From Eledone cirrhosa (lineage: Eukaryota): DNA of 64,000 nt. The notes beneath the pieces are model-generated. The model ran no database searches, was not told where the DNA came from, and worked only from the letters and a program-made list of their open reading frames with translations. The stretch's first letter is position 1. Each line of letters starts with the position of its first letter. Where the stretch lies: NCBI GenBank assembly GCA_964016885.1, contig OZ024748.1, positions 32,240,001 through 32,304,000 of the forward strand, written 5' to 3'. The position numbers were made by a program, and so were the translations under genes. Below, in pieces: positions 1 through 35,271 of this stretch.

Positions 1-3000
1 TTGCAAAATACATTATATATACATCTATATATATATTGCTATTTCAGAGCTCCAATACTAATTTTTAATTTCTGCCTGACCAACAATCGCTCTGTATAAT
101 CAGCTCCTGATTATTTACAAGAATTCTATAAGAATATAACATCAGTAATCTCAGTAGACAGGAGGGTTAGTTAGCCTTGATAAGCTTCAACAAAACGAAA
201 CAAGGCCCTTGTCGGCTTATCTCCCCTGTTTGCTGAGATTAAAGTAAGTGAATTTGTCACTACTCTAAAACAATAGCATACGGTCTTCAAAATGCTTTTA
301 ATTAAGCATAAAGTCTATTGCAAAATACATTATATCTACATCTATATATATATTGCTATTTCAGAGCTCCAATTCTAATTTTTAATTTCTGCCTGACCAA
401 CAATCGCTCTGTATAATCAGCTCCTGATTATTTACTAGAATTCTATAAGAATATAACATCAGTTATCTCAGTAGACAGGAGGGTTAGTTAGCCTTGATAA
501 GCTTCAACAAAAGCGAAACAAGGCCCTTGTCGGCTTATCTCCCCTGTTTGCTGAGATTAAAGTAAGTGAATTTGTCACTACTCTAAAACAATAGCCTACG
601 GTCTTCAAAATGTTTTTAAATAAGCATAAAGTGTATTGCAAAATACATTATACAGACATCCATATTTATATTGCTATTTCATAGCTCCAATTTTAATTTG
701 TAATTTCTGCCTGACCAACAATCGTTCTGTATAATCAGCTCCTGATTATTTACTAGAATTCTATAAGAATATAACATCAGTAATCTCAGTAGACAGGAGG
801 GTTAGTTAGCCTTGATAAGCTTCAACAAAAGCGAAACAAGGCCCTTGTCGGCTTATCTCCCCTGTGTGCTGAGATTAAAGTAAGTGAATTTGTCACTACT
901 CTAAAACTATAGCATACGGTCTTCAAAATGCTTTTAATTAAGCATAAAGTCTATTGCAAAATACATTATATATACATCCATATATATATTGCTATTTCAG
1001 ATCTCCAATACTAATTTTTAATTTCTGCCTGACCAACAATCGCTCTGTATAATCAGCTCCTGATTATTTACTAGAATTCTATAAGAATATAACATAAGTA
1101 ATCTCAGTAGAAAGGAGGGTTAGTTAGCCTTGATAAGCTTCAACAAAAGCGAAACAAGGCCCTTGTCGGCTTATCTCCCCTGTTTGCTGAGATTAAAGTA
1201 AGTGAATTTGTCACTACTCTAAAACAATAGCATACGGTCTTCAAAATGCTTTTTATTAAGCATAAAGTCTATTGCAAAATACATTATATATACATCCATA
1301 TTTATATTGCTATTTCAGAGCTCCAATTCTAATTTTTAATTTCTGCCTGACCAACAATCGCTCTGTATAATCAGCTCCTGATTATTTACTAGAATTCTAT
1401 AAGAATATAACATAAGTAATCTCAGTAGACAGGAGGGTTAGTTAGCTTTCATAAGCTTCAACAAAAGCTAAACAAGGTCCTTGTTGGCTTATCTGCTCTG
1501 TTTGCTGAGATTAAAGTAAGTGAATTTGTAACTACTCTAAAACAATAGCATACGGTCTACAAAATGCTTTTAATTAAGCACAAAGTGTATTGCAAAATAC
1601 ATTATATATACATCCATATATATATTGCTATTTCAGAGCTCCAATTCTAATTTGTAATTTCTGCCTGACCAACAATCGCTCTGTATAATCAGCTCCTGAT
1701 TATTTACTAGAATTCTATAAGAATATAACATAAGTAATCTCAGTAGACAGGAGGGTTAGTTAGCCTTGATAAGCTTCAACAAAAGCGAAACAAGGCCCTT
1801 GTCGGCTTATCTCCCCTGTTTGCTGAGATTAAAGTAAGTGAATTTGTCACTACTCTAAAACAATAGCATACGGTCTTCAAAATGCTTTTTATTAAGCATA
1901 AAGTCTATTGCAAAATACATTATATATACATCCATATTTATATTGCTATTTCAGAGCTCCAATTCTAATTTTTAATTTCTGCCTGACCAACAATCGCTCT
2001 GTATAATCAGCTCCTGATTATTTACTAGAATTCTATAAGAATATAACATAAGTAATCTCAGTAGACAGGAGGGTTAGTTAGCTTTCATAAGCTTCAACAA
2101 AAGCTAAACAAGGCCCTTGTCGGCTTATCTGCTCTGTTTGCTGAGATTAAAGTAAGTGAATTTGTAACTACTCTAAAACAATAGCATACGGTCTACAAAA
2201 TGCTTTTAATTAAGCACAAAGTGTATTGCAAAATACATTATATATACATCCATATATATATTGCTATTTCAGAGCTCCAATTCTAATTTGTAATTTCTGC
2301 CTGACCAACAATCGCTCTGTATAATCAGCTCCTGATTATTTACTAGAATTCTATAAGAATATAACATAAGTAATCTCAGTAGACAGGAGGGTTAGTTAGC
2401 CTTGATAAGCTTCAACAAAAGCGAAACAAGGCCCTTGTCGGCTTATCTGCTCTGTTTGCTGAGATTAAAGTAAGTGAATTTGTAACTACTCTAAAACAAT
2501 AGCATACGGTCTACAAAATGCTTTTAATTAAGCACAAAGTGTATTGCAAAATACATTATATATACATCCATATATATATTGCTATTTCAGAGCTCCAATT
2601 CTAATTTTTAATTTCTGCCTGACCAACAATCGCTCTGTATAATCAGCTCCTGATTATTTACTAGAATTCTATAAGAATATAACATCAGTAATCTCAGTAG
2701 ACAGGAGGGGTAGTTAGCCTTGATAAGCTTCAACAAAAGCGAAACAAGGCCCTTGTCGGCTTATCTCCCCTGTGTGCTGAGATTAAAGTAAGTGAATTTG
2801 TCACTACTCTAAAACAATAGCATAAGGTCTTCAAAATGCTTTTAATTAAGCATAAAGTCTATTGCAAAATACATTATATCTACATCTATATATATATTGC
2901 TATTTCAGAGCTCCAATTCTAATTTATAATTTCTGCCTGACCAACAATCGCTCTGTATAATCAGCTCCTGATTATTTACTAGAATTCTATAAGAATATAA

Positions 3001-6000
3001 CATCAGTAATCTAAAGTAGACAGGAGGTGTAGTTAGCCTTGATAAGCTTCAACAAAAGCGAAACAAGGCCCTTGTCGGCTTATCTCCCCTGTTTGCTGAG
3101 ATTAAAGTAAGTGAATTTGTCACTACTCTAAAACAATAGCATACGGTCTTCAAAATGCTTTTAATTAATCATAAAGTGTATTGCAAAATACATTATATAT
3201 ACATCCATATATATATTGCTATTTCAGAGCTCCAATACTAATTTTTAATTTCTGCCTGACCAACAATCGCTCTGTATAATCAGCTCCTGATTATTTACTA
3301 GAATTCTATAAGAATATAACATCAGTAATCTCAGTAGACAGGACGTGTAGTTAGCCTTGATAAGCTTCAACAAAAGCGAAACAAGGCCCTTGTCGGCTTA
3401 TCTCCCCTGTTTGCTGAGATTAAAATAAGTGAATTTATCACTACTCTAAAACAATAGCATACGGTCTTCAAAATGCTTTTTATTAAGCATAAAGTCTATT
3501 GCAAAATACATTATACAGACATCCATATTTATATTGCTATTTCAAAGCTCCAATTCTAATTTTTAATTTCTGCCTGACCAACAATCGCTCTGTATAATCA
3601 GCTCCTGATTATTTACTAGAATTCTATAAGAATATAACATCAGTAATCTCAGTAGACAGGACGTGTAGTTAGCCTTGATAAGCTTCAACAAAAGCGAAAC
3701 AAGGCCCTTGTCGGCTTATCTCCCCTGTTTGCTGAGATTAAAATAAGTGAATTTATCACTACTCTAAAACAATAGCATACGGTCTTCAAAATGCTTTTTA
3801 TTAAGCATAAAGTCTATTGCAAAATACATTATACAGACATCCATATTTATATTGCTATTTCATAGCTCCAATTCTAATTTTTAATTTCTGCCTGACCAAC
3901 AATCGCTCTGTATAATCAGCTCCTGATTATTTACTAGAATTCTATTAGAATATAACATCAGTAATCTCAGTAGACAGGAGGGGTAGTTAGCCTTGATAAG
4001 CTTCAACAAAAGCGAAACAAGGCCCTTGTCGGCCTATCTCCCCTGTTTGCTGAGATTAAAGTAAGTGAATTTGTTACTACTCTAAAACAATAGCATACGG
4101 TCTTCAAAATGCTTTTAATTAATCATAAAGTGTATTGCAAAATACATTATATATACATCCATATATATATTGCTAGTTCAGAGCTCCAATTCTAATTTTT
4201 AATTTCTGCCTGACCAACAATCGCTCTGTAAAATCAGCACCTGATTATTTACTAGAATTCTATAAGAATATAACATCCGTAATGTCAGTAGACAGGAGGG
4301 TTAGTTAGCCTTGATAAGCTTCAACAAAAGCGAAACAAGGCCCTTGTCGGCTTATCTCCCCTGTGTTCTGAGATTAAAGTAAGTGAATTTGTCACTACTC
4401 TAAAACAATAGCATACGGTCTTCAAAATGCTTTTAATTAAGCATAAAGTCTATTGCAAAATACATTATATATACATCCATATATATATTGCTATTTCAGA
4501 GCTCCAATTCTTATTTTTAATTTCTGCCTGACCAACAATCGCTCTGTATAATCAGCTCCTGATTATTTACTAGAATTCTATAAGAATATAACATCAGTAA
4601 TCTCAGTAGACAGGAGGGTTAGTTAGCCTTGATAAGCTTCAACAAAAGTGAAACAAGGCCCTTGTCGGCTTATCTCCCCTGTTTGCTGAGATTAAAGTAA
4701 GTGAATTTGTAACTACTCTAAAACAATAGCATACGGTCTTCAAAATGCTTTTAATTAAGCACAAAGTGTATTGCAAAATACATTACATATACATCCATAT
4801 ATATATATTGCTATTTCAGAGCTCCAATTCTAATTTTTAATTTCTGCCTGACCAACAATCGTTCTGTATAATCAGCTCCTGATTATTTACTAGAATTCTA
4901 TAAGAATATAACATCAGTAATCTCAGTAGACAGGACGGGTAGTTAGCCTTGATAAGCTTCAACGAAAGCGAAACAAGGCCCTTGTCGGCTTATCTCACCT
5001 GTTTGCTGAGATTAAAGTAAGTGAATTTGTCACTACTCTAAAAGAATAGCATACCGTCTTCAAAATGCTTTTAATTAAGCACAAAGTGTATTGCAAAATA
5101 CATTATATATACATCCATATATATATTGCTATTTCAGAGCTCCAATTCTAATTTTTAATTTCTGCCTGACCAACAATCGCTCTGTAAAATCAGCTCCTGA
5201 TTATTTACTAGAATTCTATAAGAATATAACATCAGTAATCTCAGTACACAGGAGGGTTAGTTAGCCTTGATAAGCTTCAACAAAAGCGAAACAAGGCCCT
5301 TGTCGGCTTATCTCCCCTGTTTGCTGAGATTAAAGTAAGTGAATTTGTCACTACTCTAAAACAATAGCATACGGTCTTCAAAATGCTTTTAATTAAGCAT
5401 AAAGTGTATTGCAAAATACATTATATATACATCCATATATATATTGCTATTTCAGAGCTCCAATTCTTATTTTTAATTTCTGCCTGACCAACAATCGCTC
5501 TGTATAATCAGCTCCTGATTATTTACTAGAATTCTATAAGAATATAACATCAGTAATCTCAGTAGACAGGAGGGGTAGTTAGCCTTGATAAGCTTCAACA
5601 AAAGCGAAACAAGGCCCTTGTCGGCTTATCTGCTCTGTTTGCTGAGATTAAAGTAAGTGAATTTGTAACTACTCTAAAACAATAGCATACGGTCTTCAAA
5701 ATGCTTTTAATTAAGCACAAAGTGTATTGCAAAATACATTATATATACATCCATATATATATTGCTATTTCAGAGCTCCAATTCTAATTTTTAATTTCTG
5801 CCTGACCAACAATCGCTCTGTATAATCAGCTCCTGATTATTTACTAGAATTCTATAAGAATATAACATCAGTAATCTCAGTAAACAGGAGGGTTAGTTAG
5901 CCTTGATAAGCTTCAACAAAAGCGAAACAAGGCCCTTGTCGGCTTATCTCCCCTGTTTGCTGAGATTAAAGTAAGTGAATTTGTCACTACTCTAAAACAA

Positions 6001-9000
6001 TAGCATACGGTCTTCAAAATGCTTTTAATTAAGCATAAAGTCTATTGCAAAATACATTATATCTACATCTATATATATATTGCTATTTCAGAGCTCCAAT
6101 TCTAATTTTTAATTTCTGCCTGACCAACAATCGCTCTGTATAATCAGCTCCTGATTATTTACTAGAATTCTATAAGAATATAACATCAGTAATCTAAAGT
6201 AGACAGGAGGTGTAGTTAGCCTTGATAAGCTTCAACAAAAGCGAAACAAGGCCCTTGTCGGCTTATCTCCCCTGTTTGCTGAGATTAAAGTAAGTGAATT
6301 TGTCACTACTCTAAAACAATAGCATACGGTCTTCAAAATGCTTTTAATTAATCATAAAGTGTATTGCAAAATACATTATATATACATCCATATATATATT
6401 GCTATTTCAGAGCTCCAATACTAATTTTTAATTTCTGCCTGACCAACAATCGCTCTGTATAATCAGCTCCTGATTATTTACTAGAATTCTATAAGAATAT
6501 AACATCAGTAATCTCAGTAGACAGGAGGGTTAGTTAGCCTTGATAAGCTTCAACAAAAGCGAAACAAGGTCCTTGTCGGCTTATCTCCCCTGTTTGCTGA
6601 GATTAAAGTAAGTGAATTTGTCACTACTCTAAAACAATAGCATACGGTCTTCAAAATGCTTTTTATTAAGCATAAAGTATATTGCAAAATACATTATATA
6701 TACATCCATATTTATATTGCTATTTCAGAGCTCCAATTCTAATTTTTAATTTCTGCCTGACCAACAATCGCTCTGTATAATCAGCTCCTGATTATTTACT
6801 AGAATTCTATAAGAATATAACATAAGTAATCTCAGTAGCCAGGAGGGTTAGTTAGCCTTCATAAGCTTCAGCAAAAGCTAAACAAGGCCCTTGTCGGCTT
6901 ATATGCTCTGTTTGCTGAGATTAAAGTAAGTGAATTTGTAACTACTCTAAAACAATAGCATACGGTCTACAAAATGCTTTTAATTAAGCACAAAGTGTAT
7001 TGCAAAATACATTATATATACATCCATATATATATTGCTATTTCAGAGCTCCAATTCTAATTTTTAATTTCTGCCTGACCAACAATCGCTCTGTATAATC
7101 AGCTCCTGATTATTTACTAGAATTCTATAAGAATATAACATCAGTAATCTCAGTAGACAGGACGTGTAGTTAGCCTTGATAAGCTTCAACAAAAGCGAAA
7201 CAAGGCCCTTGTCGGCTTATCTCCCCTGTTTGCTGAGATTAAAATAAGTGAATTTATCACTACTCTAAAACAATAGCATACGGTCTTCAAAATGCTTTTT
7301 ATTAAGCATAAAGTCTATTGCAAAATACATTATACAGACATCCATATTTATATTGCTATTTCAAAGCTCCAATTCTAATTTTTAATTTCTGCCTGACCAA
7401 CAATCGCTCTGTATAATCAGCTCCTGATTATTTACTAGAATTCTATAAGAATATAACATCAGTAATCTCAGTAGACAGGACGTGTAGTTAGCCTTGATAA
7501 GCTTCAACAAAAGCGAAACAAGGCCTTTGTCGGCTTATCTCCCCTGTTTGCTGAGATTAAAATAAGTGAATTTATCACTACTCTAAAACAATAGCATACG
7601 GTCTTCAAAATGCTTTTTATTAAGCATAAAGTCTATTGCAAAATACATTATACAGACATCCATATTTATATTGCTATTTCATAGCTCCAATTCTAATTTG
7701 TAATTTCTGCCTGACCAACAATCGCTCTGTATAATCAGCTCCTGATTATTTACTAGAATTCTATTAGAATATAACATCAGTAATCTCAGTAGACAGGAGG
7801 GGTAGTTAGCCTTGATAAGCTTCAACAAAAGCGAAACAAGGCCCTTGTCGGCTTATCTCCCCTGTTTGCTGAGATTAAAGTAAGTGAATTTGTTACTACT
7901 CTAAAACAATAGCATACGGTCTTCAAAATGCTTTTAATTAATCATAAAGTGTATTGCAAAATACATTATATATACATCCATATATATATTGCTAGTTCAG
8001 AGCTCCAATTCTAATTTTTAATTTCTGCCTGACCAACAATCGCTCTGTAAAATCAGCACCTGATTATTTACTAGAATTCTATAAGAATATAACATCCGTA
8101 ATGTCAGTAGACAGGAGGGTTAGTTAGCCTTGATAAGCTTCAACAAAAGCGAAACAAGGCCCTTGTCGGCTTATCTCCCCTGTGTTCTGAGATTAAAGTA
8201 AGTGAATTTGTCACTACTCTAAAACAATAGCATACGGTCTTCAAAATGCTTTTAATTAAGCATAAAGTCTATTGCAAAATACATTATATATACATCCATA
8301 TATATATTGCTATTTCAGAGCTCCAATTCTTATTTTTAATTTCTGCCTGACCAACAATCGCTCTGTATAATCAGCTCCTGATTATTTACTAGAATTCTAT
8401 AAAAATATAACATCAGTAATCTCAGTAGACAGGAGGGTTAGTTAGCCTTGATAAGCTTCAACAAAAGCGAAACAAGGCCCTTGTCGGCTTATCTGCTCTG
8501 TTTGCTGAGATTAAAGTAAGTGAATTTGTCACTACTCTAAAACAATAGCATACGGTCTTCAAAATGCTTTTAATTAAGCATAAAGTGTATTGCAAAATAC
8601 ATTATATATACATCCATATATATATTGCTATTTCAGAGCTCCAATTCTAATTTTTAATTTCTGCCTGACCAACAATCGCTCTGTAAAATCAGCTCCTGAT
8701 TATTTACTAGAATTCTATAAGAATATAACATCAGTAATCTCAGTAGACAGGAGGGTTAGTTAGCCTTGATAAGCTTCAACAAAAGCGAAACAAGGCCCTT
8801 GTCGGCTTATCTCCCCTGTTTGCTGAGATTAAAGTAAGTGAATTTGTCACTACTCTAAAACAATAGCATACGGTCTTCAAAATGCTTTTAATTAAGCATA
8901 AAGTGTATTGCAAAATACATTATATATACATCCATATATATATTGCTATTTCAGAGCTCCAATTCTTATTTTTAATTTCTGCCTGACCAACAATCGCTCT

Positions 9001-12000
9001 GTATAATCAGCTCCTGATTATTTACTAGAATTCTATAAGAATATAACATCAGTAATCTCAGTAGACAGGAGGGGTAGTTAGCCTTGATAAGCTTCAATAA
9101 AAGCGAAACAAGGCCCTTGTCGGTTTTTCTCCCCTGTTTGATGAGATTAAAGTAATTGAATTTGTCACTACTCTAAAACAATAGCATACGGTCTTCAAAA
9201 TGCTTTTTATTAAGCATAAAGTCTATTGCAAAATACATTATATATACATCCATATATATATTGCTATTTCAGAGCTCCAATTCTAATTTTTAATTTCTGC
9301 CTGACCAACAATCGCTCTGTATAATCAGCTCCTGATTATTTACTAGAATTCTATAAGAATATAACATCAGTAATCTCAGTAGACAGGAGGGTTAGTTAGC
9401 CTTGATAAGCTTCAACAAAAGCGAAACAAGGCCCTTGTCGGCTTATCTCCCCTGTTTGCTGAGATTAAAGTAAGTGAATTCATCACTACTCTAAAACAAT
9501 AGCATACGGTCTTCAAAATGTTTTTAAATAAGCATAAAGTGTATTGCAAAATACATTATACAGACATCCATATTTATATTGCTATTTCATAGCTCCAATT
9601 CTAATTTGTAATTTCTGCCTGACCAACAATCGTTCTGTATAATCAGCTCCTGATTATTTACTAGAATTCTATAAGAATATAACATCAGTAATCTCAGTAG
9701 ACAGGAGGGTTAGTTAGCCTTGATAAGCTTCAACAAAAGCGAAACAAGGCCCTTGTCGGCTTATCTCCCCTGTGTGCTGAGATTAAAGTAAGTGAATTTG
9801 TCACTACTCTAAAACTATAGCATACGGTCTTCAAAATGCTTTTAATTAAGCATAAAGTCTATTGCAAAATACATTATATATACATCCATATATATATATG
9901 TTGCTATTTCAGAGCTCCAATTCTAATTTTTAATTTCTGCCTGACCAACAATCGCTCTGTATAATCAGCTCCTGATTATTTACTAGAATTCTATAAGAAT
10001 ATAACATCAGTAATCTCAGTAGACAGGAGGGTTAGTTAGCCTTGATAAGCTTCAACAAAAGCGAAACAAGGCCCTTGTCGGCTTATCTCCCCTGTGTGCT
10101 GAGATTAAAGTAAGTGAATTTGTCACTACTCTAAAACTATAGCATACGGTCTTCAAAATGCTTTTAATTAAGCATAAAGTCTATTGCAAAATACATTATA
10201 TATACATCCATATATATATATGTTGCTATTTCAGAGCTCCAATACTAATTTTTAATTTCTGCCTGACCAACAATCGCTCTGTATAATCAGCTCCTGATTA
10301 TTTACTAGAATTCTATAAGAATATAACATAAGTAATCTCAGTAGACAGGAGGGTTAGTTAGCCTTCATAAGCTTCAACAAAAGCGAAACAAGGCCCTTGT
10401 CGGCTTATCTGCTCTGTTTGCTGAGATTAAAGTAAGTGAATTTGTAACTACTCTAAAACAATAGCATACGGTCTTCAAAATGCTTTTAATTAAGCACAAA
10501 GTGTATTGCAAAATACATTATATATACATCCATATATATATTGCTATTTCAGAGCTCCAATTCTAATTTTTAATTTCTGCCTGACCAACAATCGCTCTGT
10601 ATAATCAGCTCCTGATTATTTACTAGAATTCTATAAGAATATAACATCAGTAATCTCAGTAGACAGGAGGGTTAGTTAGCCTTGATAAGCTTCAACAAAA
10701 GCGAGACAAGGCCCTTGTCGGCTTATCTCCCCTGTTTGCTGAGATTAAAGTAAGTGAATTTGTCACTACTCTAAAAGAATAGCATACGGTCTTCAAAATG
10801 CTTTTAATTAAGCATAAAGTCTATTGCAAAATACATTATATCTACATCTATATATATATTGCTATTTCAGAGCTCCAATTCTAATTTTGAATTTCTGCCT
10901 GACCAACAATCGCTCTGTATAATCAGCTCCTGATTATTTACTAGAATTCTATAAGAATATAACATCAGTAATCTCAGTAGACAGGACGTGTAGTTAGCCT
11001 TGATAAGCTTCAACAAAAGCGAAACAAGGCCCTTGTCGGTTTATCTCCCCTGTTTCATGAGATTAAAGTAATTGAATTTGTCACTACTCTAAAACAATAG
11101 CATACGGTCTTCAAAATGCTTTTAAATAAGCATAAAGTGTATTGCAAAATACATTATATAGACATCCATATATATATTGCTATTTCATAGCTCCAATTCT
11201 AATTTTTAATTTCTGCCTGACCAACAATCGCTCTGTATAATCAGCTCCTGATTATTTACTAGAATTCTATAAGAATATAACATCAGTAATCTAAAGTAGA
11301 CAGGTGTAGTTAGCCTTGATAAGCTTCAACAAAAGCGAAACAAGGCCCTTGTCGGCTTATCTCCCCTGTTTGCTGAGATTAAAGTAAGTGAATTTGTCAC
11401 TACTCTAAAACAATAGCATACGGTCTTCAAAATGCTTTTAATTAATCATAAAGTGTATTGCAAAATACATTATATATACATCCATATATATATTGCTATT
11501 TCAGAGCTCCAATACTAATTTTTAATTTCTACCTGACCAACAATCGCTCTGTATAATCAGCTCCTGATTATTTACTAGAATTCTATAAGAATATAACATC
11601 AGTAATCTCAGTAGACAGGAGGGTTAGTTAGCCTTGATAAGCTTCAACAAAAGCGAAACAAGGCCCTTGTCGGCTTATCTCCCCTGTTTGCTGAGATTAA
11701 AGTAAGTGAATTTGTCACTACTCTAAAACAATAGCATACGGTCTTCAAAATGCTTTTTATTAAGCATAAAGTCTATTGCAAAATACATTATATATACATC
11801 CATATTTATATTGCTATTTCAGAGCTCCAATTCTAATTTTTAATTTCTGCCTGACCAACAATCGCTCTCTATAATCAGCTCCTGATTATTTACTAGAATT
11901 CTATAAGAATATAACATAAGTAATCTCAGTAGACAGGAGGGTTAGTTAGCCTTCATAAGCTTCAACAAAAGCTAAACAAGGCCCTTGTCGGCTTATCTGC

Positions 12001-15000: not shown

Positions 15001-18000
15001 AGCTCCAATTCTAATTTTTAATTTCTGCCTGACCAACAATCGCTCTGTATAATCAGCTCCTGATTATTTACTAGAATTCTATAAGAATATAACATCAGTA
15101 ATCTCAGTAGACAGGACGTGTAGTTAGCCTTGATAAGCTTCAACAAAAGCGAAACAAGGCCCTTGTCGGCTTATCTCCCCTGTTTGCTGAGATTAAAGTA
15201 AGTGAATTCATCACTACTCTAAAACAATAGCATACGGTCTTCAAAATGTTTTTAAATAAGCATAAAGTGTATTGCAAAATACATTATACAGACATCCATA
15301 TTTATATTGCTATTTCATAGCTCAAATTCTAATTTGTAATTTCTGCCTGACCAACAATATTCTGTATAATCAGCTCCTGATTATTTACTAGAATTCTATA
15401 AGAATATAACATCAGTAATCTCAGTAGACAGGAGGGTTAGTTAGCCTTGATAAGCTTCAACAAAAGCGAAACAAGGCCCTTGTCGGCTTATCTCCCCTGT
15501 GTGCTGAGATTAAAGTAAGTGAATTTGTCACTACTCTAAAACTATAGCATACGGTCTTCAAAATGCTTTTAATTAAGCATAAAGTCTATTGCAAAATACA
15601 TTATATATACATCCATATATATATATGTTGCTATTTCAGAGCTCCAATTCTAATTTTTAATTTCTGCCTGACCAACAATCGCTCTGTATAATCAGCTCCT
15701 GATTATTTACTAGAATTCTATAAGAATATAACATCAGTAATCTCAGTAGACAGGACGTGTAGTTAGCCTTGATAAGCTTCAACAAAAGCGAAACAAGGCC
15801 CTTGTCGGTTTATCTCCCCTGTTTCATGAGATTAAAGTAATTGAATTTGTCACTACTCTAAAACAATAGCATACGGTCTTCAAAATGCTTTTAAATAAGC
15901 ATAAAGTGTATTGCAAAATACATTATATAGACATCCATATATATATTGCTATTTCATAGCTCCAATTCTAATTTTTAATTTCTGCCTGACCAACAATCGC
16001 TCTGTATAATCAGCTCCTGATTATTTACTAGAATTCTATAAGAATATAACATCAGTAATCTCAGTAGACAGGACGGGTAGTTAGCCTTGATAAGCTTCAA
16101 CGAAAGCGAAACAAGGCCCTTGTCGGCTTATCTCCCCTGTTTGCTGAGATTAAAGTAAGTGAATTTGTCACTACTCTAAAAGAATAGCATACGGTCTTCA
16201 AAATGCTTTTAATTAAGCATAAAGTGTATTGCAAAATACATTATATATACATCCATATATATATTGCTATTTCAGAGCTCCAATTCTAATTTTTAATTTC
16301 TGCCTGACCAACAATCGCTCTGTAAAATCAGCTCCTGATTATTTACTAGAATTCTATAAGAATATAACATCAGTAATCTCAGTAGACAGGAGGGTTAGTT
16401 AGCCTTGATAAGCTTCAACAAAAGCGAAACAAGGCCTTTGTCGGCTTATCTCCCCTGTTTGCTGAGATTAAAGTAAGTGAATTTGTCACTACTCTAAATC
16501 AATAGCATACGGTCTTCAAAATGCTTTTAATTAAGCATAAAGTGTATTGCAAAATACATTATATATACATCCATATATATATTGCTATTTCAGAGCTCCA
16601 ATTCTTATTTTTAATTTCTGCCTGACCAACAATCGCTCTGTATAATCAGCTCCTGATTATTTACTAGAATTCTATAAGAATATAACATCAGTAATCTCAG
16701 TAGACAGGAGGGGTAGTTAGCCTTGATAGGCTTCAACAAAAGCGAAACAAGGCCCTTGTCGGTTTTTCTCCCCTGTTTGATGAGATTTAATTAATTGAAT
16801 TTGTCACTACTCTAAAACAATAGCATACGGTCTTCAAAATGCTTTTAATTAAGCATAAAGTCTATTGCAAAATACATTATATATACATCCATATATATAT
16901 ATTGCTATTTCAGAGCTCCAATTCTAATTTTTAATTTCTGCCTGACCAACAATCGCTCTGTATAATCAGCTCCTGATTATTTACTAGAATTCTATAAGAA
17001 TATAACATCAGTAATCTCAGTAGACAGGACGGGTAGTTAGCCTTGATAAGCTTCAACGAAAGCGAAACAAGGCCCTTGTCGGCTTATCTCCCCTGTTTGC
17101 TGAGATTAAAGTAAGTGAATTTGTCACTACTCTAAAAGAATAGCATACGGTCTTCAAAATGCTTTTAATTAAGCATAAAGTGTATTGCAAAATACATTAT
17201 ATATACATCCATATATATATTGCTATTTCAGAGCTCCAATTCTAATTTTTAATTTCTGCCTGACCAACAATCGCTCTGTAAAATCAGCTCCTGATTATTT
17301 ACTAGAATTCTATAAGAATATAACATCAGTAATCTCAGTAGACAGGGGGGTTAGTTAGCCTTGATAAGCTTCAACAAAAGCGAAACAAGGTCCTTGTCGG
17401 CTTATCTCCCCTGTTTGCTGAGATTAAAGTAAGTGAATTTGTCACTACTCTAAAACAATAGCATACGGTCTTCAAAATGCTTTTAATTAAGCATAAAGTG
17501 TATTGCAAAATACATTATATATACATCCATATATATATTGCTATTTCAGAGCTCCAATTCTTATTTTTAATTTCTGCCTGACCAACAATCGCTCTGTATA
17601 ATCAGCTCCTGATTATTTACTAGAATTCTATAAGAATATAACATCAGTAATCTCAGTAGACAGGAGGGTTAGTTAGCCTTGATAAGCTTCAACAAAAGCG
17701 AAACAAGGCCCTTGTCGGCTTATCTCCCCTGTGTGCTGAGATTAAAGTAAGTGAATTTGTCACTACTCTAAAACTATAGCATACGGTCTTCAAAATGCTT
17801 TTAATTAAGCATAAAGTCTATTGCAAAATACATTATATATACATCCATATATATATATGTTGCTATTTCAGAGCTCCAATTCTAATTTTTAATTTCTGCC
17901 TGACCAAAAATCGCTCTGTATAATCAGCTCCTGATTATTTACTAGAATTCTATAAGAATATAACATCAGTAATCTCAGTAGACAGGACGTGTAGTTAGCC

Positions 18001-21000
18001 TTGATAAGCTTCAACAAAAGCGAAACAAGGCCCTTGTCGGTTTATCTCCCCTGTTTCATGAGATTAAAGTAATTGAATTTGTCACTACTCTAAAACAATA
18101 GCATACGGTCTTCAAAATGCTTTTAAATAAGCATAAAGTGTATTGCAAAATACATTATATAGACATCCATATATATATTGCTATTTCATAGCTCCAATTC
18201 TAATTTTTAATTTCTGCCTGACCAACAATCGCTCTGTATAATCAGCTCCTGATTATTTACTAGAATTCTATAAGAATATAACATCAGTAATCTCAGTAGA
18301 CAGGACGGGTAGTTAGCCTTGATAAGCTTCAACGAAAGCGAAACAAGGCCCTTGTCGGCTTATCTCCCCTGTTTGCTGAGATTAAAGTAAGTGAATTTGT
18401 CACTACTCTAAAACTATAGCATACGGTCTTCAAAATGCTTTTAATTAAGCACAAAGTGTATTGCAAAATACATTATATATACATCCATATATATATATTG
18501 CTATTTCAGAGCTCCAATTCTAATTTTTAATTTCTGCCTGACCAACAATCGCTCTGTATAATCAGCTCCTGATTATTTACTAGAATTCTATAAGAATATA
18601 ACATCAGTAATCTCAGTAGACAGGAGGGTTAGTTAGCCTTGATAAGCTTCAACAAAAGCGAAACAAGGCCCTTGTCGGCTTATCTCCCCTGTTTGCTGAG
18701 ATTAAAGTAAGTGAATTTGTCACTACTCTAAAACAATAGCATACGGTCTTCAAAATGCTTTTAATTAAGCATAAAGTCTATTGCAAAATACATTATATCT
18801 ACATCTATATATATATTGCTATTTCAGAGCTCCAATTCTAATTTTTAATTTCTGCCTGACCAACAATCGCTCTGTATAATCAGCTCCTGATTATTTACTA
18901 GAATTCTATAAGAATATAACATCAGTAATCTCAGTAGACAGGAGGGTTAGTTAGCCTTGATAAGCTTCAACAAAAGCGAAACAAGGCCCTTGTCGGCTTA
19001 TCTCCCCTGTTTGCTGAGATTAAAGTAAGTGAATTTGTCACTACTCTAAAACAATAGCATACGGTCTTCAAAATGCTTTTAATTAATCATAAAGTGTATT
19101 GCAAAATACATTATATATACATCCATATATATATTGCTATTTCAGAGCTCCAATACTAATTTTTAATTTCTGCCTGACCAACAATCGCTCTGTATAATCA
19201 GCTCCTGATTATTTACTAGAATTCTATAAGAATATAACATCAGTAATCTCAGTAGACAGGAGGGTTAGTTAGCCTTGATAAGCTTCAACAAAAGCGAAAC
19301 AAGGCCCTTGTCGGCTTATCTCCCCTGTTTGCTGAGATTAAAGTAAGTGAATTTGTCACTACTCTAAAACAATAGCATACGGTCTTCAAAATGCTTTTTA
19401 TTAAGCATAAAGTCTATTGCAAAATACATTATATATACATCCATATTTATATTGCTATTTCAGAGCTCCAATTCTAATTTTTAATTTCTGCCTGACCAAC
19501 AATCGCTCTGTATAATCAGCTCCTGATTATTTACTAGAATTCTATAAGAATATAACATCAGTAATCTCAGTAGACAGGAGGGGTAGTTAGCCTTGATAGG
19601 CTTCAACAAAAGCGAAACAAGGCCCTTGTCGGTTTTTCTCCCCTGTTTGATGAGATTTAATTAATTGAATTTGTCACTACTCTAAAACAATAGCATACGG
19701 TCTTCAAAATGCTTTTAATTAAGCATAAAGTCTATTGCAAAATACATTATATATACATCCATATATATATATTGCTATTTCAGAGCTCCAATTCTAATTT
19801 TTAATTTCTGCCTGACCAACAATCGCTCTGTATAATCAGCTCCTGATTATTTACTAGAATTCTATAAGAATATAACATCAGTAATCTCAGTAGACAGGAC
19901 GGGTAGTTAGCCTTGATAAGCTTCAACGAAAGCGAAACAAGGCCCTTGTCGGCTTATCTCCCCTGTTTGCTGAGATTAAAGTAAGTGAATTTGTCACTAC
20001 TCTAAAAGAATAGCATACGGTCTTCAAAATGCTTTTAATTAAGCATAAAGTGTATTGCAAAATACATTATATATACATCCATATATATATTGCTATTTCA
20101 GAGCTCCAATTCTAATTTTTAATTTCTGCCTGACCAACAATCGCTCTGTAAAATCAGCTCCTGATTATTTACTAGAATTCTATAAGAATATAACATCAGT
20201 AATCTCAGTAGACAGGGGGGTTAGTTAGCCTTGATAAGCTTCAACAAAAGCGAAACAAGGTCCTTGTCGGCTTATCTCCCCTGTTTGCTGAGATTAAAGT
20301 AAGTGAATTTGTCACTACTCTAAAACAATAGCATACGGTCTTCAAAATGCTTTTAATTAAGCATAAAGTGTATTGCAAAATACATTATATATACATCCAT
20401 ATATATATTGCTATTTCAGAGCTCCAATTCTTATTTTTAATTTGTGCCTGACCAACAATCGCTCTGTATAATCAGCTCCTGATTATTTACTAGAATTCTA
20501 TAAGAATATAACATCAGTAATCTCAGTAGACAGGAGGGTTAGTTAGCCTTGATAAGCTTCAACAAAAGCGAAACAAGGCCCTTGTCGGCTTATCTCCCCT
20601 GTGTGCTGAGATTAAAGTAAGTGAATTTGTCACTACTCTAAAACTATAGCATACGGTCTTCAAAATGCTTTTAATTAAGCATAAAGTCTATTGCAAAATA
20701 CATTATATATACATCCATATATATATATGTTGCTATTTCAGAGCTCCAATTCTAATTTTTAATTTCTGCCTGACCAACAATCGCTCTGTATAATCAGCTC
20801 CTGATTATTTACTAGAATTCTATAAGAATATAACATCAGTAATCTCAGTAGACAGGACGTGTAGTTAGCCTTGATAAGCTTCAACAAAAGCGAAACAAGG
20901 CCCTTGTCGGTTTATCTCCCCTGTTTCATGAGATTAAAGTAATTGAATTTGTCACTACTCTAAAACAATAGCATACGGTCTTCAAAATGCTTTTAAATAA

Positions 21001-24000
21001 GCATAAAGTGTATTGCAAAATACATTATATAGACATCCATATATATATTGCTATTTCATAGCTCCAATTCTAATTTTTAATTTCTGCCTGACCAACAATC
21101 GCTCTGTATAATCAGCTCCTGATTATTTACTAGAATTCTATAAGAATATAACATCAGTAATCTCAGTAGACAGGACGGGTAGTTAGCCTTGATAAGCTTC
21201 AACAAAAGCGAAACAAGGTCCTTGTCGGCTTATCTCCCCTGTTTGCTGAGATTAAAGTAAGTGAATTTGTCACTACTCTAAAACAATAGCATACGGTCTT
21301 CAAAATGCTTTTAATTAAGCATAAAGTGTATTGCAAAATACATTATATATACATCCATATATATATTGCTATTTCAGAGCTCCAATTCTTATTTTTAATT
21401 TCTGCCTGACCAACAATCGCTCTGTATAATCAGCTCCTGATTATTTACTAGAATTCTATAAGAATATAACATCAGTAATCTCAGTAGACAGGAGGGTTAG
21501 TTAGCCTTGATAAGCTTCAACAAAAGCGAAACAAGGCCCTTGTCGGCTTATCTCCCCTGTGTGCTGAGATTAAAGTAAGTGAATTTGTCACTACTCTAAA
21601 ACTATAGCATACGGTCTTCAAAATGCTTTTAATTAAGCATAAAGTCTATTGCAAAATACATTATATATACATCCATATATATATATGTTGCTATTTCAGA
21701 GCTCCAATTCTAATTTTTAATTTCTGCCTGACCAAAAATCGCTCTGTATAATCAGCTCCTGATTATTTACTAGAATTCTATAAGAATATAACATCAGTAA
21801 TCTCAGTAGACAGGACGTGTAGTTAGCCTTGATAAGCTTCAACAAAAGCGAAACAAGGCCCTTGTCGGTTTATCTCCCCTGTTTCATGAGATTAAAGTAA
21901 TTGAATTTGTCACTACTCTAAAACAATAGCATACGGTCTTCAAAATGCTTTTAAATAAGCATAAAGTGTATTGCAAAATACATTATATAGACATCCATAT
22001 ATATATTGCTATTTCATAGCTCCAATTCTAATTTTTAATTTCTGCCTGACCAACAATCGCTCTGTATAATCAGCTCCTGATTATTTACTAGAATTCTATA
22101 AGAATATAACATCAGTAATCTCAGTAGACAGGACGGGTAGTTAGCCTTGATAAGCTTCAACGAAAGCGAAACAAGGCCCTTGTCGGCTTATCTCCCCTGT
22201 TTGCTGAGATTAAAGTAAGTGAATTTGTCACTACTCTAAAACTATAGCATACGGTCTTCAAAATGCTTTTAATTAAGCACAAAGTGTATTGCAAAATACA
22301 TTATATATACATCCATATATATATATTGCTATTTCAGAGCTCCAATTCTAATTTTTAATTTCTGCCTGACCAACAATCGCTCTGTATAATCAGCTCCTGA
22401 TTATTTACTAGAATTCTATAAGAATATAACATCAGTAATCTCAGTAGACAGGAGGGTTAGTTAGCCTTGATAAGCTTCAACAAAAGCGAAACAAGGCCCT
22501 TGTCGGCTTATCTCCCCTGTTTGCTGAGATTAAAGTAAGTGAATTTGTCACTACTCTAAAACAATAGCATACGGTCTTCAAAATGCTTTTAATTAAGCAT
22601 AAAGTCTATTGCAAAATACATTATATCTACATCTATATATATATTGCTATTTCAGAGCTCCAATTCTAATTTTTAATTTCTGCCTGACCAACAATCGCTC
22701 TGTATAATCAGCTCCTGATTATTTACTAGAATTCTATAAGAATATAACATCAGTAATCTCAGTAGACAGGAGGGTTAGTTAGCCTTGATAAGCTTCAACA
22801 AAAGCGAAACAAGGCCCTTGTCGGCTTATCTCCCCTGTTTGCTGAGATTAAAGTAAGTGAATTTGTCACTACTCTAAAACAATAGCATACGGTCTTCAAA
22901 ATGCTTTTAATTAATCATAAAGTGTATTGCAAAATACATTATATATACATCCATATATATATTGCTATTTCAGAGCTCCAATACTAATTTTTAATTTCTG
23001 CCTGACCAACAATCGCTCTGTATAATCAGCTCCTGATTATTTACTAGAATTCTATAAGAATATAACATCAGTAATCTCAGTAGACAGGAGGGTTAGTTAG
23101 CCTTGATAAGCTTCAACAAAAGCGAAACAAGGCCCTTGTCGGCTTATCTCCCCTGTTTGCTGAGATTAAAGTAAGTGAATTTGTCACTACTCTAAAACAA
23201 TAGCATACGGTCTTCAAAATGCTTTTTATTAAGCATAAAGTCTATTGCAAAATACATTATATATACATCCATATTTATATTGCTATTTCAGAGCTCCAAT
23301 TCTAATTTTTAATTTCTGCCTGACCAACAATCGCTCTGTATAATCAGCTCCTGATTATTTACTAGAATTCTATAAGAATATAACATCAGTAATCTCAGTA
23401 GACAGGAGGGGTAGTTAGCCTTGATAGGCTTCAACAAAAGCGAAACAAGGCCCTTGTCGGTTTTTCTCCCCTGTTTGATGAGATTTAATTAATTGAATTT
23501 GTCACTACTCTAAAACAATAGCATACGGTCTTCAAAATGCTTTTAATTAAGCATAAAGTCTATTGCAAAATACATTATATATACATCCATATATATATAT
23601 TGCTATTTCAGAGCTCCAATTCTAATTTTTAATTTCTGCCTGACCAACAATCGCTCTGTATAATCAGCTCCTGATTATTTACTAGAATTCTATAAGAATA
23701 TAACATCAGTAATCTCAGTAGACAGGACGGGTAGTTAGCCTTGATAAGCTTCAACGAAAGCGAAACAAGGCCCTTGTCGGCTTATCTCCCCTGTTTGCTG
23801 AGATTAAAGTAAGTGAATTTGTCACTACTCTAAAAGAATAGCATACGGTCTTCAAAATGCTTTTAATTAAGCATAAAGTGTATTGCAAAATACATTATAT
23901 ATACATCCATATATATATTGCTATTTCAGAGCTCCAATTCTAATTTTTAATTTCTGCCTGACCAACAATCGCTCTGTAAAATCAGCTCCTGATTATTTAC

Positions 24001-27000
24001 TAGAATTCTATAAGAATATAACATCAGTAATCTCAGTAGACAGGGGGGTTAGTTAGCCTTGATAAGCTTCAACAAAAGCGAAACAAGGTCCTTGTCGGCT
24101 TATCTCCCCTGTTTGCTGAGATTAAAGTAAGTGAATTTGTCACTACTCTAAAACAATAGCATACGGTCTTCAAAATGCTTTTAATTAAGCATAAAGTGTA
24201 TTGCAAAATACATTATATATACATCCATATATATATTGCTATTTCAGAGCTCCAATTCTTATTTTTAATTTGTGCCTGACCAACAATCGCTCTGTATAAT
24301 CAGCTCCTGATTATTTACTAGAATTCTATAAGAATATAACATCAGTAATCTCAGTAGACAGGAGGGTTAGTTAGCCTTGATAAGCTTCAACAAAAGCGAA
24401 ACAAGGCCCTTGTCGGCTTATCTCCCCTGTGTGCTGAGATTAAAGTAAGTGAATTTGTCACTACTCTAAAACTATAGCATACGGTCTTCAAAATGCTTTT
24501 AATTAAGCATAAAGTCTATTGCAAAATACATTATATATACATCCATATATATATATGTTGCTATTTCAGAGCTCCAATTCTAATTTTTAATTTCTGCCTG
24601 ACCAACAATCGCTCTGTATAATCAGCTCCTGATTATTTACTAGAATTCTATAAGAATATAACATCAGTAATCTCAGTAGACAGGACGTGTAGTTAGCCTT
24701 GATAAGCTTCAACAAAAGCGAAACAAGGCCCTTGTCGGTTTATCTCCCCTGTTTCATGAGATTAAAGTAATTGAATTTGTCACTACTCTAAAACAATAGC
24801 ATACGGTCTTCAAAATGCTTTTAAATAAGCATAAAGTGTATTGCAAAATACATTATATAGACATCCATATATATATTGCTATTTCATAGCTCCAATTCTA
24901 ATTTTTAATTTCTGCCTGACCAACAATCGCTCTGTATAATCAGCTCCTGATTATTTACTAGAATTCTATAAGAATATAACATCAGTAATCTCAGTAGACA
25001 GGACGGGTAGTTAGCCTTGATAAGCTTCAACGAAAGCGAAACAAGGCCCTTGTCGGCTTATCTCCCCTGTTTGCTGAGATTAAAGTAAGTGAATTTGTCA
25101 CTACTCTAAAACTATAGCATACGGTCTTCAAAATGCTTTTAATTAAGCACAAAGTGTATTGCAAAATACATTATATATACATCCATATATATATATTGCT
25201 ATTTCAGAGCTCCAATTCTAATTTTTAATTTCTGCCTGACCAACAATCGCTCTGTATAATCAGCTCCTGATTATTTACTAGAATTCTATAAGAATATAAC
25301 ATCAGTAATCTCAGTAGACAGGAGGGTTAGTTAGCCTTGATAAGCTTCAACAAAAGCGAAACAAGGCCCTTGTCGGCTTATCTCCCCTGTTTGCTGAGAT
25401 TAAAGTAAGTGAATTTGTCACTACTCTAAAACAATAGCATACGGTCTTCAAAATGCTTTTAATTAAGCATAAAGTCTATTGCAAAATACATTATATCTAC
25501 ATCTATATATATATTGCTATTTCAGAGCTCCAATTCTAATTTTTAATTTCTGCCTGACCAACAATCGCTCTGTATAATCAGCTCCTGATTATTTACTAGA
25601 ATTCTATAAGAATATAACATCAGTAATCTCAGTAGACAGGAGGGTTAGTTAGCCTTGATAAGCTTCAACAAAAGCGAAACAAGGCCCTTGTCGGCTTATC
25701 TCCCCTGTTTGCTGAGATTAAAGTAAGTGAATTTGTCACTACTCTAAAACAATAGCATACGGTCTTCAAAATGCTTTTAATTAATCATAAAGTGTATTGC
25801 AAAATACATTATATATACATCCATATATATATTGCTATTTCAGAGCTCCAATACTAATTTTTAATTTCTGCCTGACCAACAATCGCTCTGTATAATCAGC
25901 TCCTGATTATTTACTAGAATTCTATAAGAATATAACATCAGTAATCTCAGTAGACAGGAGGGTTAGTTAGCCTTGATAAGCTTCAACAAAAGCGAAACAA
26001 GGCCCTTGTCGGCTTATCTCCCCTGTTTGCTGAGATTAAAGTAAGTGAATTTGTCACTACTCTAAAACAATAGCATACGGTCTTCAAAATGCTTTTTATT
26101 AAGCATAAAGTCTATTGCAAAATACATTATATATACATCCATATTTATATTGCTATTTCAGAGCTCCAATTCTAATTTTTAATTTCTGCCTGACCAACAA
26201 TCGCTCTGTATAATCAGCTCCTGATTATTTACTAGAATTCTATAAGAATATAACATAAGTAATCTCAGTAGACAGGAGGGTTAGTTAGCCTTGATAAGCT
26301 TCAACAAAAGCGAAACAAGGCCCTTGTCGGCTTATCTGCTCTGTTTGCTGAGATTAAAGTAAGTGAATTTGTAACTACTCTAAAACAATAGCATACGGTC
26401 TACAAAATGCTTTTAATTAAGCACAAAGTGTATTGCAAAATACATTATATATACATCCATATATATATATTGCTATTTCAGAGCTCCAATTCTAATTTTT
26501 AATTTCTGCCTGACCAACAATCGCTCTGTATAATCAGCTCCTGATTATTTACTAGAATTCTATAAGAATATAACATCAGTAATCTCAGTAGACAGGAAGG
26601 GTAGTTAGCCTTGATATGCTTCAACAAAAGCGAAACAAGGCCCTTGTCGGCTTATCTCCCCTGTTTGCTGAGATTAAAGTAAGTGAACTTGTCACTACTC
26701 TAAAACAATAGCATACGGTCTTCAAAATGCTTTTAATTAAGCACAAAGTGTATTGCAAAATACATTATATATACATCCATATATATATTGCTATTTCAGA
26801 GCTCCAATTCTAATTTTTAATTTCTGCCTGACCAACAATCGCTCTGTATAATCAGCTCCTGCTTATTTACTAGAATTCTATAAGAATATAACATCAGTAA
26901 TGTTAGTAGACAGGAGGGGTAGTTAGCCTTGATAAGCTTCAACAAAAGCGAAACAAGGCCCTTGTCGGCTTATCTCCCCTGTTTGCTGAGATTAAAGTAA

Positions 27001-27134
27001 GTGAATTTGTCACTACTCTAAAACAATAGCATACGGTCTTCAAAATGCTTTTAATTAAGCATAAAGTGTATTGCAAAATACATTATATATACATCCATAT
27101 ATATATATTGCTATTTCAGAGCTCCAATTCTAAT
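1..27134 (+). repeat. Tandem array of ~318-bp units (about 85 copies), each containing a hammerhead ribozyme; non-LTR retrozyme-like satellite
   Basis: The motif ttgcaaaatacatt recurs at 1, 318, ..., 3181, 4771 (period 318, with small indels in the (AT)n tract). Units are near-identical. The array runs off the left edge and ends at ...gctccaattctaat (27134) against a (TA)n tract. Confidence 0.97.
1735..1831 (+). ncRNA. Type I hammerhead ribozyme (representative copy; one per 318-bp unit)
   Basis: Stem I: taatctcagtagacagg..agcc pairs with ggct..cctgtttgctgagatta (two G-U pairs, one internal loop). Core U3UGAUA8A at 1766-1772. Stem II: gctt-caacaa-aagc. GAAA at 1787-1790. Stem III: acaag-gcc-cttgt. 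The GUC triplet predicts cleavage after C1803. Confidence 0.88.
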
Positions 27135-27192
27135 ATAAATATATATATATATATATAAATATATATATATAAATATAAATATATATATATAT
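27135..27192. repeat. (TA)n microsatellite at the array boundary
   Basis: Directly visible AT dinucleotide run. Confidence 0.9.
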
Positions 27193-27369
27193 GGTACGGT
27201 CTGTCTATTTCAGAGAGATGAAATAGTTATTGGTACGGTCTGTATAAAAAAATGTTATATCTTACGTATGATTCAGGTTAAATAGAAAAAACAAATGTGG
27301 TATTCCTACCCTCGTAATTTTAGACACACTGTGTTTATTTCTACATATATTAGTATATATATATACAAT

Positions 27370-27676
27370 GATATTAAATAAATGGAAACTATATTTATAA
27401 AACCATATTTATTCTATTATATATATTTCAAGGGTACCAAAAATTTTGGTAAGCTATCATCAGATAAAATACAAAATGTTTTATAAATATTTGACATGAC
27501 CAAGGATCCCTGGAAAGTGATAACTTGACTTTCCAGGGATCCTTGGTCATGTCAAATATTTATAAAACATTTTGTATTTTATCTGATGATAGCGTACCAA
27601 AATTGTTGGTACCCTTGAAATATATATAATAGAATGAATATGGTTTTATAAATATAGTTTCCATTTATTTAATATC
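27370..27676. mobile_element. Inverted-repeat PLE terminal fragment (about 149-bp arms, 9-nt spacer) with a hammerhead motif in each arm
   Basis: 27370-27518 is the near-perfect reverse complement of 27528-27676. CTGATGA(27583)...gtaccaa/ttggtac...GAAA tatata TA is flanked by attttat/atagaat. A related single arm lies at about 47745-47880. Confidence 0.75.
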
Positions 27677-27769
27677 TTGAATACTTACTCCAGAAATCTG
27701 TCAAGTGCTGTGAATCAGTTATAAACATCTATATTTTTGAATTTCCAACAAATTAAATATCTCTTCTAC

Positions 27770-30800: not shown

Positions 30801-30932
30801 ATTATTATTATTGTTATGATTGCTAGATGTATTGTTGTTTACTTCACCATTATTGTTGTTAGTTATTTCTACCATTGTGGTTGTTACTTTTATTATGTTT
30901 CTTGTTTTTGTTGCTACATGTATTATTTCCAT
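27863..30932 (-). mobile_element. Penelope-like retroelement (RT + GIY-YIG endonuclease), decayed; possibly Naiad-related clade
   Basis: ORF pieces 30486-30932, 29732-30493, 29009-29686 and 28327-29136. RT motifs PTDKSG, TRPVC, SMDVVSLYPSI, QNEGAAIG, and RYVND (catalytic DD altered). Cys-rich linker, then VYSIRC..YIGETARS..R..QH (GIY-YIG). Two frameshifts and one in-frame TGA. Flanked by TA tracts. The clade assignment is tentative. Confidence 0.9.
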
Positions 30933-34400: not shown

Positions 34401-35169
34401 TAGGCATTGTGTGCAGAGGATATACGCAGACTGGAGAGAAACGAAGCTTGCATGCTCCACTGGATGTGTAATAGTAATATACGTGAACGGCAAAGCATAG
34501 ACACACTAAGGGAGAAATTAGAAATAAGAGGGATCAGATGTTGTTTACTCGAGAGAACACTACGTTGGTATGGTCACGTGATGCACATGAAAGACGACAG
34601 CTGTATAAAAAAGTGCAGGGCAATAAAAATAGACGGTAGCCACGGAGTAGGCACACCCAGAAAAACCTGGGACAACTTGATAAATTCCGACCTCACACAC
34701 TTACACCTCTCCAAGACAATGTCACTGGACCGAGATCTTTGGCGCTACACAGTAATACAGAAGACCTGCCTTACCTAAGTGCAAAGTGAAACCTACTACA
34801 GTCAGTAGGCACTTCTAACAAAATACACCCCCGTCCCACTACCCCCACCCCATCCACACCACCCCTTTCAATGTAAAGTTATATTGGTACCACAACATCC
34901 AGCCCGAAACAAACGAGGTCGTGTAGGTGTCACGACAAAAAAACACACAGTCCACGCTGTAATGTGACTGTGTAGGTAACACGGTAAAAACCTCCCAGTT
35001 CCACACTGTAAATATGGTTGGTGTTAGGAAGGGCATCCAGCCGTAGAAAACCCGCCAGACAGTCCTATACGAGCAAAACAACCACTCTTGCCTCAAGTGG
35101 GAAAACTCCCGTCCAAACCCATGCGAGCGTGGAATATGGACGTTAAACGATGATGATGATGATGATGAT
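31485..35169 (+). mobile_element. Near full-length RTE-clade LINE (APE endonuclease + RT + Cys/His finger), disrupted
   Basis: CIQETKW, ISAYAPQ, GNLNGHV and SQVDYIL (APE); FVDLEKAFDRVP, GVHQGSVLSPLLF and LLYVDDL (RT); LRWYGHV..R; 3' UTR ending in (GAT)n. Stops and frameshifts near 31886, 33185, 34125 and 34400. The 5' boundary is approximate. Confidence 0.93.
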
Positions 35170-35271
35170 ATATATATATAAATAAATATATATAAATATA
35201 TATATATATATAAATAAATATATATATAAATAAATATATATATATATAAATAAATATATATATATATATAA

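Follow-up and report, generated by a model that had tools for sequence, protein, structure and literature searches.

The window analysed here is a 64,000-nucleotide stretch of the Eledone cirrhosa genome (assembly GCA_964016885.1, contig OZ024748.1, forward-strand positions 32,240,001 to 32,304,000), and its first 27,134 positions are the right-hand part of a 72.9-kb tandem array in which a unit of about 318 bp, carrying a type I hammerhead ribozyme motif, is repeated head to tail on the plus strand. Judged from its sequence, the unit represents a mobile element family whose copies are dispersed through the genome and bear a Penelope-type insertion signature. It is very probably a non-autonomous, hammerhead-bearing retrozyme without long terminal repeats (non-LTR retrozyme) that was mobilised by a Penelope-like element (PLE) acting in trans, and one insertion of the retrozyme grew into a satellite by block duplication. 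The evidence consists of unit sequence, covariation, insertion geometry and array structure.

The array unit and its hammerhead

Regarding the extent of the array, Tandem Repeats Finder (TRF) reports a period of 318, 85.2 copies and 96% matches for positions 1-27134, which bears out the repeat of about 27 kb described in an earlier note made from the sequence alone. The array reaches upstream to G000:C8:32194239 and comprises approximately 229 head-to-tail units of what is here called family A (225 anchored and 4 skipped), 85 of them in the window, so that the "at least 85" contiguous copies of the earlier note are correct for the window and understate the array. The spacing from unit to unit is 316-322 bp rather than the constant 318 nt that had been given for the predicted cleavage sites. 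Core and stems are intact in 201 of the 225 anchored units, the core is changed in 20 and a stem is broken in 4; among the 84 anchored units of the window the corresponding numbers are 72, 11 and 1, and the 85th window unit (at 145) lacks one base of stem II. The claim that every unit is a hammerhead is therefore accurate for most units (72/85 in the window) and not for the remainder. The unit has a GC content of 0.33 and is too short for a reverse transcriptase (RT) coding sequence.

Units are numbered such that unit position 1 is window position 1734, and in the unit starting there the parts of the hammerhead were found in plus-strand order at the places previously described. The example domain occupies 1736-1830, including the long closing stem formed by unit positions 3-18 and 82-97. 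The stem I 5' arm at 1760-1765 (six positions, including one U.U) pairs with the stem I 3' arm at 1804-1809, and is followed by the core U3-U4-G5-A6-U7-A8-A9 (UUGAUAA; 1766-1772, unit 33-39), a U3-A8 variant of C3-G8, and by stem II of 4 bp with a 6-nt loop, CAACAA (1773-1786, unit 40-53). The segment 1787-1803 contains GAAA (1787-1790, unit 54-57), the 5-bp stem III (1790-1802, unit 57-69), U16.1 and, at 1803 (unit 70), C17; the predicted cut lies between unit positions 70 and 71. The core elements YUGANRA, GAAA and UH are thus present with three helices and an open helix I, as in type I hammerheads. The U3-A8 core is a natural variant described in PLE hammerheads of Schistosoma (PMC4209133; here and below, published systems are described from the available sections of the papers cited).

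The check with hammerhead profile models that the earlier note had proposed gave a divided answer: Rfam HH9 matched 16 times in the first 6 kb (E 0.004-0.27), always below the gathering score (20-26 bits vs 52), and in these matches loop 2 (CAACAA) and loop 1 (UUA), the candidate elements of a tertiary contact between the two loops, align with the HH9 consensus. The 111-nt hammerhead region folds with z = -5.9, due mostly to the long closing stem, and its minimum free energy (MFE) structure is a fold other than the hammerhead. The active fold lies a median of 4-6 kcal/mol above the ensemble in array units, 8 kcal/mol in 125 dispersed copies and 8-10 kcal/mol in a sister family with a canonical core, family B. 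Because this canonical family scores worst, the test does not discriminate, and folding energy says nothing for or against activity.

Covariation was counted with one haplotype per dispersed insertion. At stem II pair 42/51, 68 of 92 insertions have U-A and 20 have A-U; at stem III pair 60/66, 84 of 95 have A-U and 10 have U-A, with G-C in further copies; and at closing-stem pair 3/97, 55 of 87 have G-C, 24 G-U and 8 A-U. Behind these changes stand a few evolutionary events, passed on to many copies, and the counts are not independent. Where subfamily-level alleles fall on paired positions, pairing is kept in 11 of 11, and the core is free of all 29 subfamily-level alleles, which is weak alone since about one would be expected there. 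Private changes are as frequent in the core as elsewhere (2.0% vs 1.3%). By the pattern of these substitutions, the hammerhead is under selection within family A.

Family B has a unit of 310/311 bp that is 69% identical to family A, with a minimal stem III and 16,693 pattern matches genome-wide; it was first seen in L011 (L011:1-2877; also in L176-L191). At the aligned core position it has the canonical CUGAUGA where family A has UUGAUAA, so that the Watson-Crick pair between positions 3 and 8 is kept as C3-G8 in one family and U3-A8 in the other. An ordinary satellite containing a chance or long-dead hammerhead-like sequence, an idea that could draw on the sub-threshold Rfam scores, the different MFE fold and the non-canonical U3-A8 core, is extremely improbable given the compensatory changes in three helices, the exchange of C3-G8 and U3-A8 between the families, the fixed distance from cut to insertion end in both families and the hundreds of dispersed insertions described below.

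Insertion geometry and the reverse transcription template

Searching the genome for copies of the unit, another check put forward in the earlier note, revealed hundreds of dispersed copies, none of which that note mentions. Exact matches to the family A hammerhead pattern number 2,071 (1,241 forward, 830 reverse), of which 199 are inside this array; about 200 surplus forward matches beyond this array were also noticed, and another subfamily may have a long array as well. Patterns for the junctions, in which unit position 236 or 210 is followed by AT repeats, have 386 and 324 genome matches, respectively, some few of the 324 possibly being internal units with a long AT tract, and the reversed controls have none. 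From the first of the junction matches listed, 120 loci were taken and 12 duplicates removed, leaving 108; these were chosen by one end, and the opposite end therefore serves as a test.

Two arms stand head to head within 30 nt in 85 of the 108 loci, 3 more are slightly over this limit, and 20 have a single arm. Among the 85 pairs, 75 combine one long end (230-245) with one short end (205-223), 8 a long with an irregular end, and one each has two short or two long ends. The family A 3' ends thus lie at +140 and +166 from the predicted cut, 26 nt apart and usually one per side. In the example unit the short end corresponds to 1943 (plus strand, unit position 210), the putative reverse-transcription start site 1, and the long end to 1969 (plus strand, unit position 236), the putative start site 2, with the 26-nt tail (unit positions 211-236) as the segment between them. 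The outer ends mostly enter (TA)n (15 further loci). Arms are 5'-truncated, with a median of 320 nt and a maximum of 1,803, and consist of the 318-bp unit sequence only, with no LTR, primer-binding site or polypurine tract; likewise, the arms hold the unit alone and carry no open reading frame (ORF) for RT and GIY-YIG between pseudo-LTRs (pLTRs). Sequence runs of unrecorded kind contain family A with subfamily variants in X1 and X4, and X5 and X6 have only 3 and 2 contigs; they are uninformative on expression.

In published PLE insertions an inverted 5'-truncated copy is present, a tail of 30-40 bp is often found at one end only, and microsatellites are targets (PMC8557442), while in the anole PLE reverse transcription begins at two neighbouring internal positions, which delimit the tail, and both strands of the target are extended (PMC11167929). 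Since the insertion geometry of families A and B matches that of these insertions, both families appear to have been mobilised by a PLE. In family B, sampled at 16 places picked by hand from the first 100 of those listed, with clusters favoured, and at L011, near-identical units form head-to-head concatemers with arms of up to about 3 kb, and all 13 complete pairs have an end at +139 from the cut on one side and at +163 to +170 on the other, in short +139/+165. One of these insertions has an additional short inverted duplication at its head-to-head junction (L176:2843-3020).

Regarding the template, 145 of the 188 arms in family A extend beyond the cut site. The 5' ends show no pile-up at the cut (3/170 at 69-71), so that 5' ends at the cleavage site were rejected as a mark of cutting in vivo; a broad bump of 21 of the 170 at 81-100 is compatible with stalling of the RT at the long stem. 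As arms run past the cut site and no pile-up is found there, the template would be a circle or an uncut multimer. On balance we favour monomer circles that would be made by the ribozyme and copied in rolling-circle fashion by a Penelope-type RT from both (TA)n strands, with starts at +140/+166, one per strand, across families that are 69% identical. All 12 family B insertions with at least two full units are haplotype-pure, across both arms where two were covered; 99 of 99 units match the haplotype class of their own insertion, 95 of them exactly, and 9 haplotypes occur among the 12 insertions. In 20,000 shuffles the mean number of pure insertions is 0.26 and the maximum 3, a comparison that demonstrates non-mixing only. 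Such purity favours circle templates, as a monomer bottleneck followed by rolling-circle copying would put a new allele into all units.

Multimeric arms could instead arise only by linear read-through of homogeneous tandem sources or by end-to-end template jumps, with no circle and with the ribozyme serving another step, an explanation that bears on the template alone and leaves PLE mobilisation untouched. It would account for the 5' ends without pile-up and for the mirrored heterogeneity in L153, L047, L121 and L042, and unprocessed RNA is the main in vitro substrate of the anole PLE (PMC11167929). Linear copying only shortens arms, should mix haplotypes and would place a new allele in one unit; this is at odds with the 12/12 pure family B insertions and their arms of up to 3 kb, and we consider the linear template rather unlikely, although the pure concatemers might come from numerous homogeneous source arrays or from jumps made repeatedly onto a single molecule.

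The pattern in family A is less clear-cut. Diagnostic site-by-insertion cases are uniform in 703 of 743, and rare alleles are common to only some copies of an insertion in 20 cases and to all copies in 11, several of the 20 looking like later local duplication. In L153 both arms repeat one set of unit-to-unit differences, a core change included, and for this insertion a multimer template is indicated. Such templates in family A would be compatible with slower cutting by a U3-A8 ribozyme.

Origin of the array and proposed life cycle

The right end of the array is the long junction of the dispersed copies: the array stops at 27134, exactly at unit position 236, with the tail of the last unit at 27109-27134 (plus strand), and enters a (TA)n tract at 27135-27192, the likely insertion target of the seed copy. 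Because the right end is this junction in (TA)n, the array appears to have begun as an ordinary insertion. Array units differ from each other by a mean of 3.6% and from the majority by 2.1%, with 121 haplotypes in 225 units. Neighbouring units are identical in only 1 of 224 cases, and identical units recur at lags of 6, 7, 9, 12, 15, 19 and 28. The array grew by DNA-level duplication of blocks of 6-28 units, the opposite of the family B pattern. Its subfamily is an older one, which has some 100 hammerhead copies dispersed elsewhere (291 matches minus 187 in the array); the closest sampled dispersed insertions are 0.7% from the array majority. Most dispersed copies are in other subfamilies, at a median of 4.9% from that majority. 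Family B is likely the youngest family.

An array of this kind could be an active master locus that is transcribed, self-processes to monomers or circles of about 318 nt and seeds the dispersed copies, and the preservation of core and stems in most of its units, the abundant circular RNA (circRNA) from retrozyme arrays of coral, mussel and axolotl (PMC7229834) and the occurrence of array allele 23T in two dispersed copies are in keeping with this. Allele sharing led to its rejection. An array allele was counted as common if 11 or more array units carry it. There are 35 such alleles; each site is covered by 10-106 dispersed insertions, and 34 of the alleles are seen in no more than two of these. 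The remaining one, 172G, is the dispersed state. For 23T, 81 of 83 genome matches are within the array, and L174, the sole cleanly aligned dispersed copy with 23T (L175, poorly aligned, was excluded), has no other common array-derived allele. Core-breaking alleles have spread in the array, where 13 units have both G5C and G12U, and not in the dispersed subfamilies; as said, most dispersed copies belong to subfamilies other than that of the array. A master locus is thus very improbable. With its alleles nearly absent from dispersed copies, the array appears to be a sink contributing little or nothing to new insertions, and it may be transcribed without retrotransposition.

From this material we infer a cycle that extends to cleavage, circles, the PLE enzyme and the order of events. 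Transcripts of tandem copies would be cut by the type I hammerhead, probably slowly given its U3-A8 core, into monomers and oligomers, part of which would be ligated into circles. The RT/endonuclease of a PLE would nick both strands of a (TA)n tract, and the RT would prime at two invariant positions within the unit (+140 and +166 from the cut), as a rule one per strand, and would pass the cut site on a circle or uncut multimer, the outcome being two 5'-truncated arms joined head to head. One insertion of the older subfamily would then have expanded to about 229 units by DNA block duplication, and would now evolve as satellite DNA.

PLE sequences are present in the window. A broken PLE, with RT followed by a GIY-YIG-like region, lies on the minus strand at ~27870-30900 between TA tracts; its family has many copies that are 94-97% identical, some with frames of more than 1,200 codons, and two alternative 3' ends. 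A second PLE family is represented by fragments at 53903-55825 (minus strand) and 61927-63012 (plus strand). A first look at the genome gave 21,185 and 65,919 PLE candidates, the latter with the second family as query, and PLE families far beyond these two are present in it. Protein queries from the two window PLEs led to 40 loci whose 3' regions were compared. A hammerhead was not found in the 3' region of the 27870-30900 family. The PLE-like ends in L227/L228 resemble the unit over 14 AT-rich nucleotides (TTGCAAAA..ATT, preceding the TA tract), a likeness too weak to be used.

Several observations weigh against this account, among them the partly shared rare alleles, the heterogeneity of L153 and the missing 5' pile-up discussed above, as well as the Rfam scores below the gathering threshold. 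An autonomous PLE sharing the unit was not found, the 3' regions of the 40 loci from the two PLE families being without real similarity to it. The left end of the array has no inverted arm, and the array starts there in mid-unit, approximately 2 kb from an assembly gap. The stretch directly left of the array start (L030:2091-4238) comprises this gap, a run of N, and a sequence that resembles a Tigger/pogo DNA transposon, and it may explain the absent inverted arm. Regarding activity in other systems, only 1 of 9 Xenopus retrozyme dimers was cleaved in vitro (Li, Clavereau and Pollet, bioRxiv 10.64898/2026.07.22.740005), and for one PLE the hammerhead was not required when insertion was assayed in vitro (PMC11167929).

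Neighbouring sequences and comparison with known systems

Other hammerhead motifs were seen around the array and in the fetched loci. Two inverted minimal motifs lie about 260 bp apart in the window at ~42980-43040 (plus strand) and ~42690-42750 (minus strand), with CUGAUGA, a long stem II and an AT-palindromic stem III, and similar ones are present in L032, L033, L203, L213 and L229. Between the array and the PLE, a long inverted repeat (fold-back) at 27340-27690 resembles these minimal-hammerhead elements. Another U3-A8 hammerhead, with a longer stem II and a short stem III, is located in unrelated sequence at L206:3505-3560 (minus strand); that sequence terminates some 150 nt downstream in a TA tract and is possibly a third family. 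The window further contains broken copies of long interspersed nuclear elements (LINEs), with endonuclease, RT and PHD-like finger, at 31887-34778, 35234-37150, 38021-39471, 46647-47597, 50997-51434 and 58889-59368, which we take to be RTE-like; an open frame for 11 tandem C2H2 zinc fingers (84-bp repeat) at 48181-49344 on the minus strand; and smaller 72-bp repeats at 44144-45464. A database search with the zinc-finger frame returned generic C2H2 clusters; the zinc-finger array and the TA-rich DNA flanking the satellite have an octopod-like look.

Taken by itself, the array adds one more example of a known thing, and the value of the locus lies in the dispersed copies and family B. Their insertion ends and pure concatemers give exact testable predictions on the cut site, the two start sites, the target and the strand rule, which suit the in vitro PLE assay of PMC11167929, and a very young family B with so many pattern matches implies a recently active partner in the genome. 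If the proposed cycle is correct, it would lend genomic support to a rolling-circle model that the papers cited here only propose, identify the 26 nt as an element recognised in trans by a PLE RT, and trace the full path from circRNA to dispersed concatemer to a 73-kb satellite, the locus showing how a retroelement seeds a satellite.

Hammerhead-bearing satellites of similar unit length include schistosome Sm-alpha and cricket pDo500. Newt satellite 2, likened here by its description in PMC7229834, is also hammerhead-bearing satellite DNA of similar unit length, and in the amphibian hammerhead motifs stem III is weak and cleavage takes place in dimers (PMC7229834). The assignment in the earlier note to type I hammerheads and non-LTR retrozymes, and its suggestion of a retrozyme turned satellite DNA, are all supported: the element belongs to this known class, which was defined for metazoans with arrays of up to 62-mers, circRNA in coral, mussel and axolotl, and PLEs as candidate helpers (PMC7229834). 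The array size had been thought exceptional for such elements and is in fact within the known range, since besides 62-mers (PMC7229834) arrays of 180 and 300 units have been published together with pLTR homology in Xenopus and a mechanism called unresolved (bioRxiv 10.64898/2026.07.22.740005); the 35 species of that survey, as given in its available sections, include no mollusc. A search of titles and abstracts found neither this family nor its insertion signatures for retrozymes, supplements and Repbase/Dfam lying outside that search and existing annotation being possible.

Like metazoan non-LTR retrozymes, the element has a low-GC tandem unit within 150-450 bp with one type I hammerhead each and no ORF, ranges from monomers to long multimers, and shares a rod-like predicted RNA and a proposed PLE dependence (PMC7229834); unlike them, family A has a U3-A8 core and a stable 5-bp stem III, and the insertion geometry and haplotype-pure concatemers seen here are not reported for retrozymes in the available sections of PMC7229834 and bioRxiv 10.64898/2026.07.22.740005. 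The link between retrozymes and PLEs has so far been based on co-occurrence and pLTR similarity, with rolling-circle reverse transcription as a hypothesis (PMC7229834; PMC7761336; PMC4209133; bioRxiv 10.64898/2026.07.22.740005) and the step from circle to concatemer stated as a model (PMC4209133; PMC7761336).

Compared with endonuclease-positive (EN+) PLEs of the Neptune/Naiad type, the inverted 5'-truncated copy, the tail at one end, the (TA)n targets, the hammerhead in the repeat, the pair of neighbouring RT start sites 3' of the hammerhead and, with regard to Schistosoma PLE hammerheads, the U3-A8 core are shared (PMC8557442; PMC11167929; PMC4209133). The unit differs from these elements in having no RT or GIY-YIG ORF, a tail of 26 nt rather than 30-40 and, in family A, a full canonical-type hammerhead instead of the minimal PLE motif; a homologous autonomous element was not found among the 40 loci. 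Non-coding, PLE-dependent elements of Chlamys, such as MRC1, are similar in forming multicopy head-to-tail insertions, whereas the Chlamys PLEs are algal, mostly without canonical hammerheads, and their non-autonomous elements have 3' ends resembling those of autonomous partners (PMC8557442).

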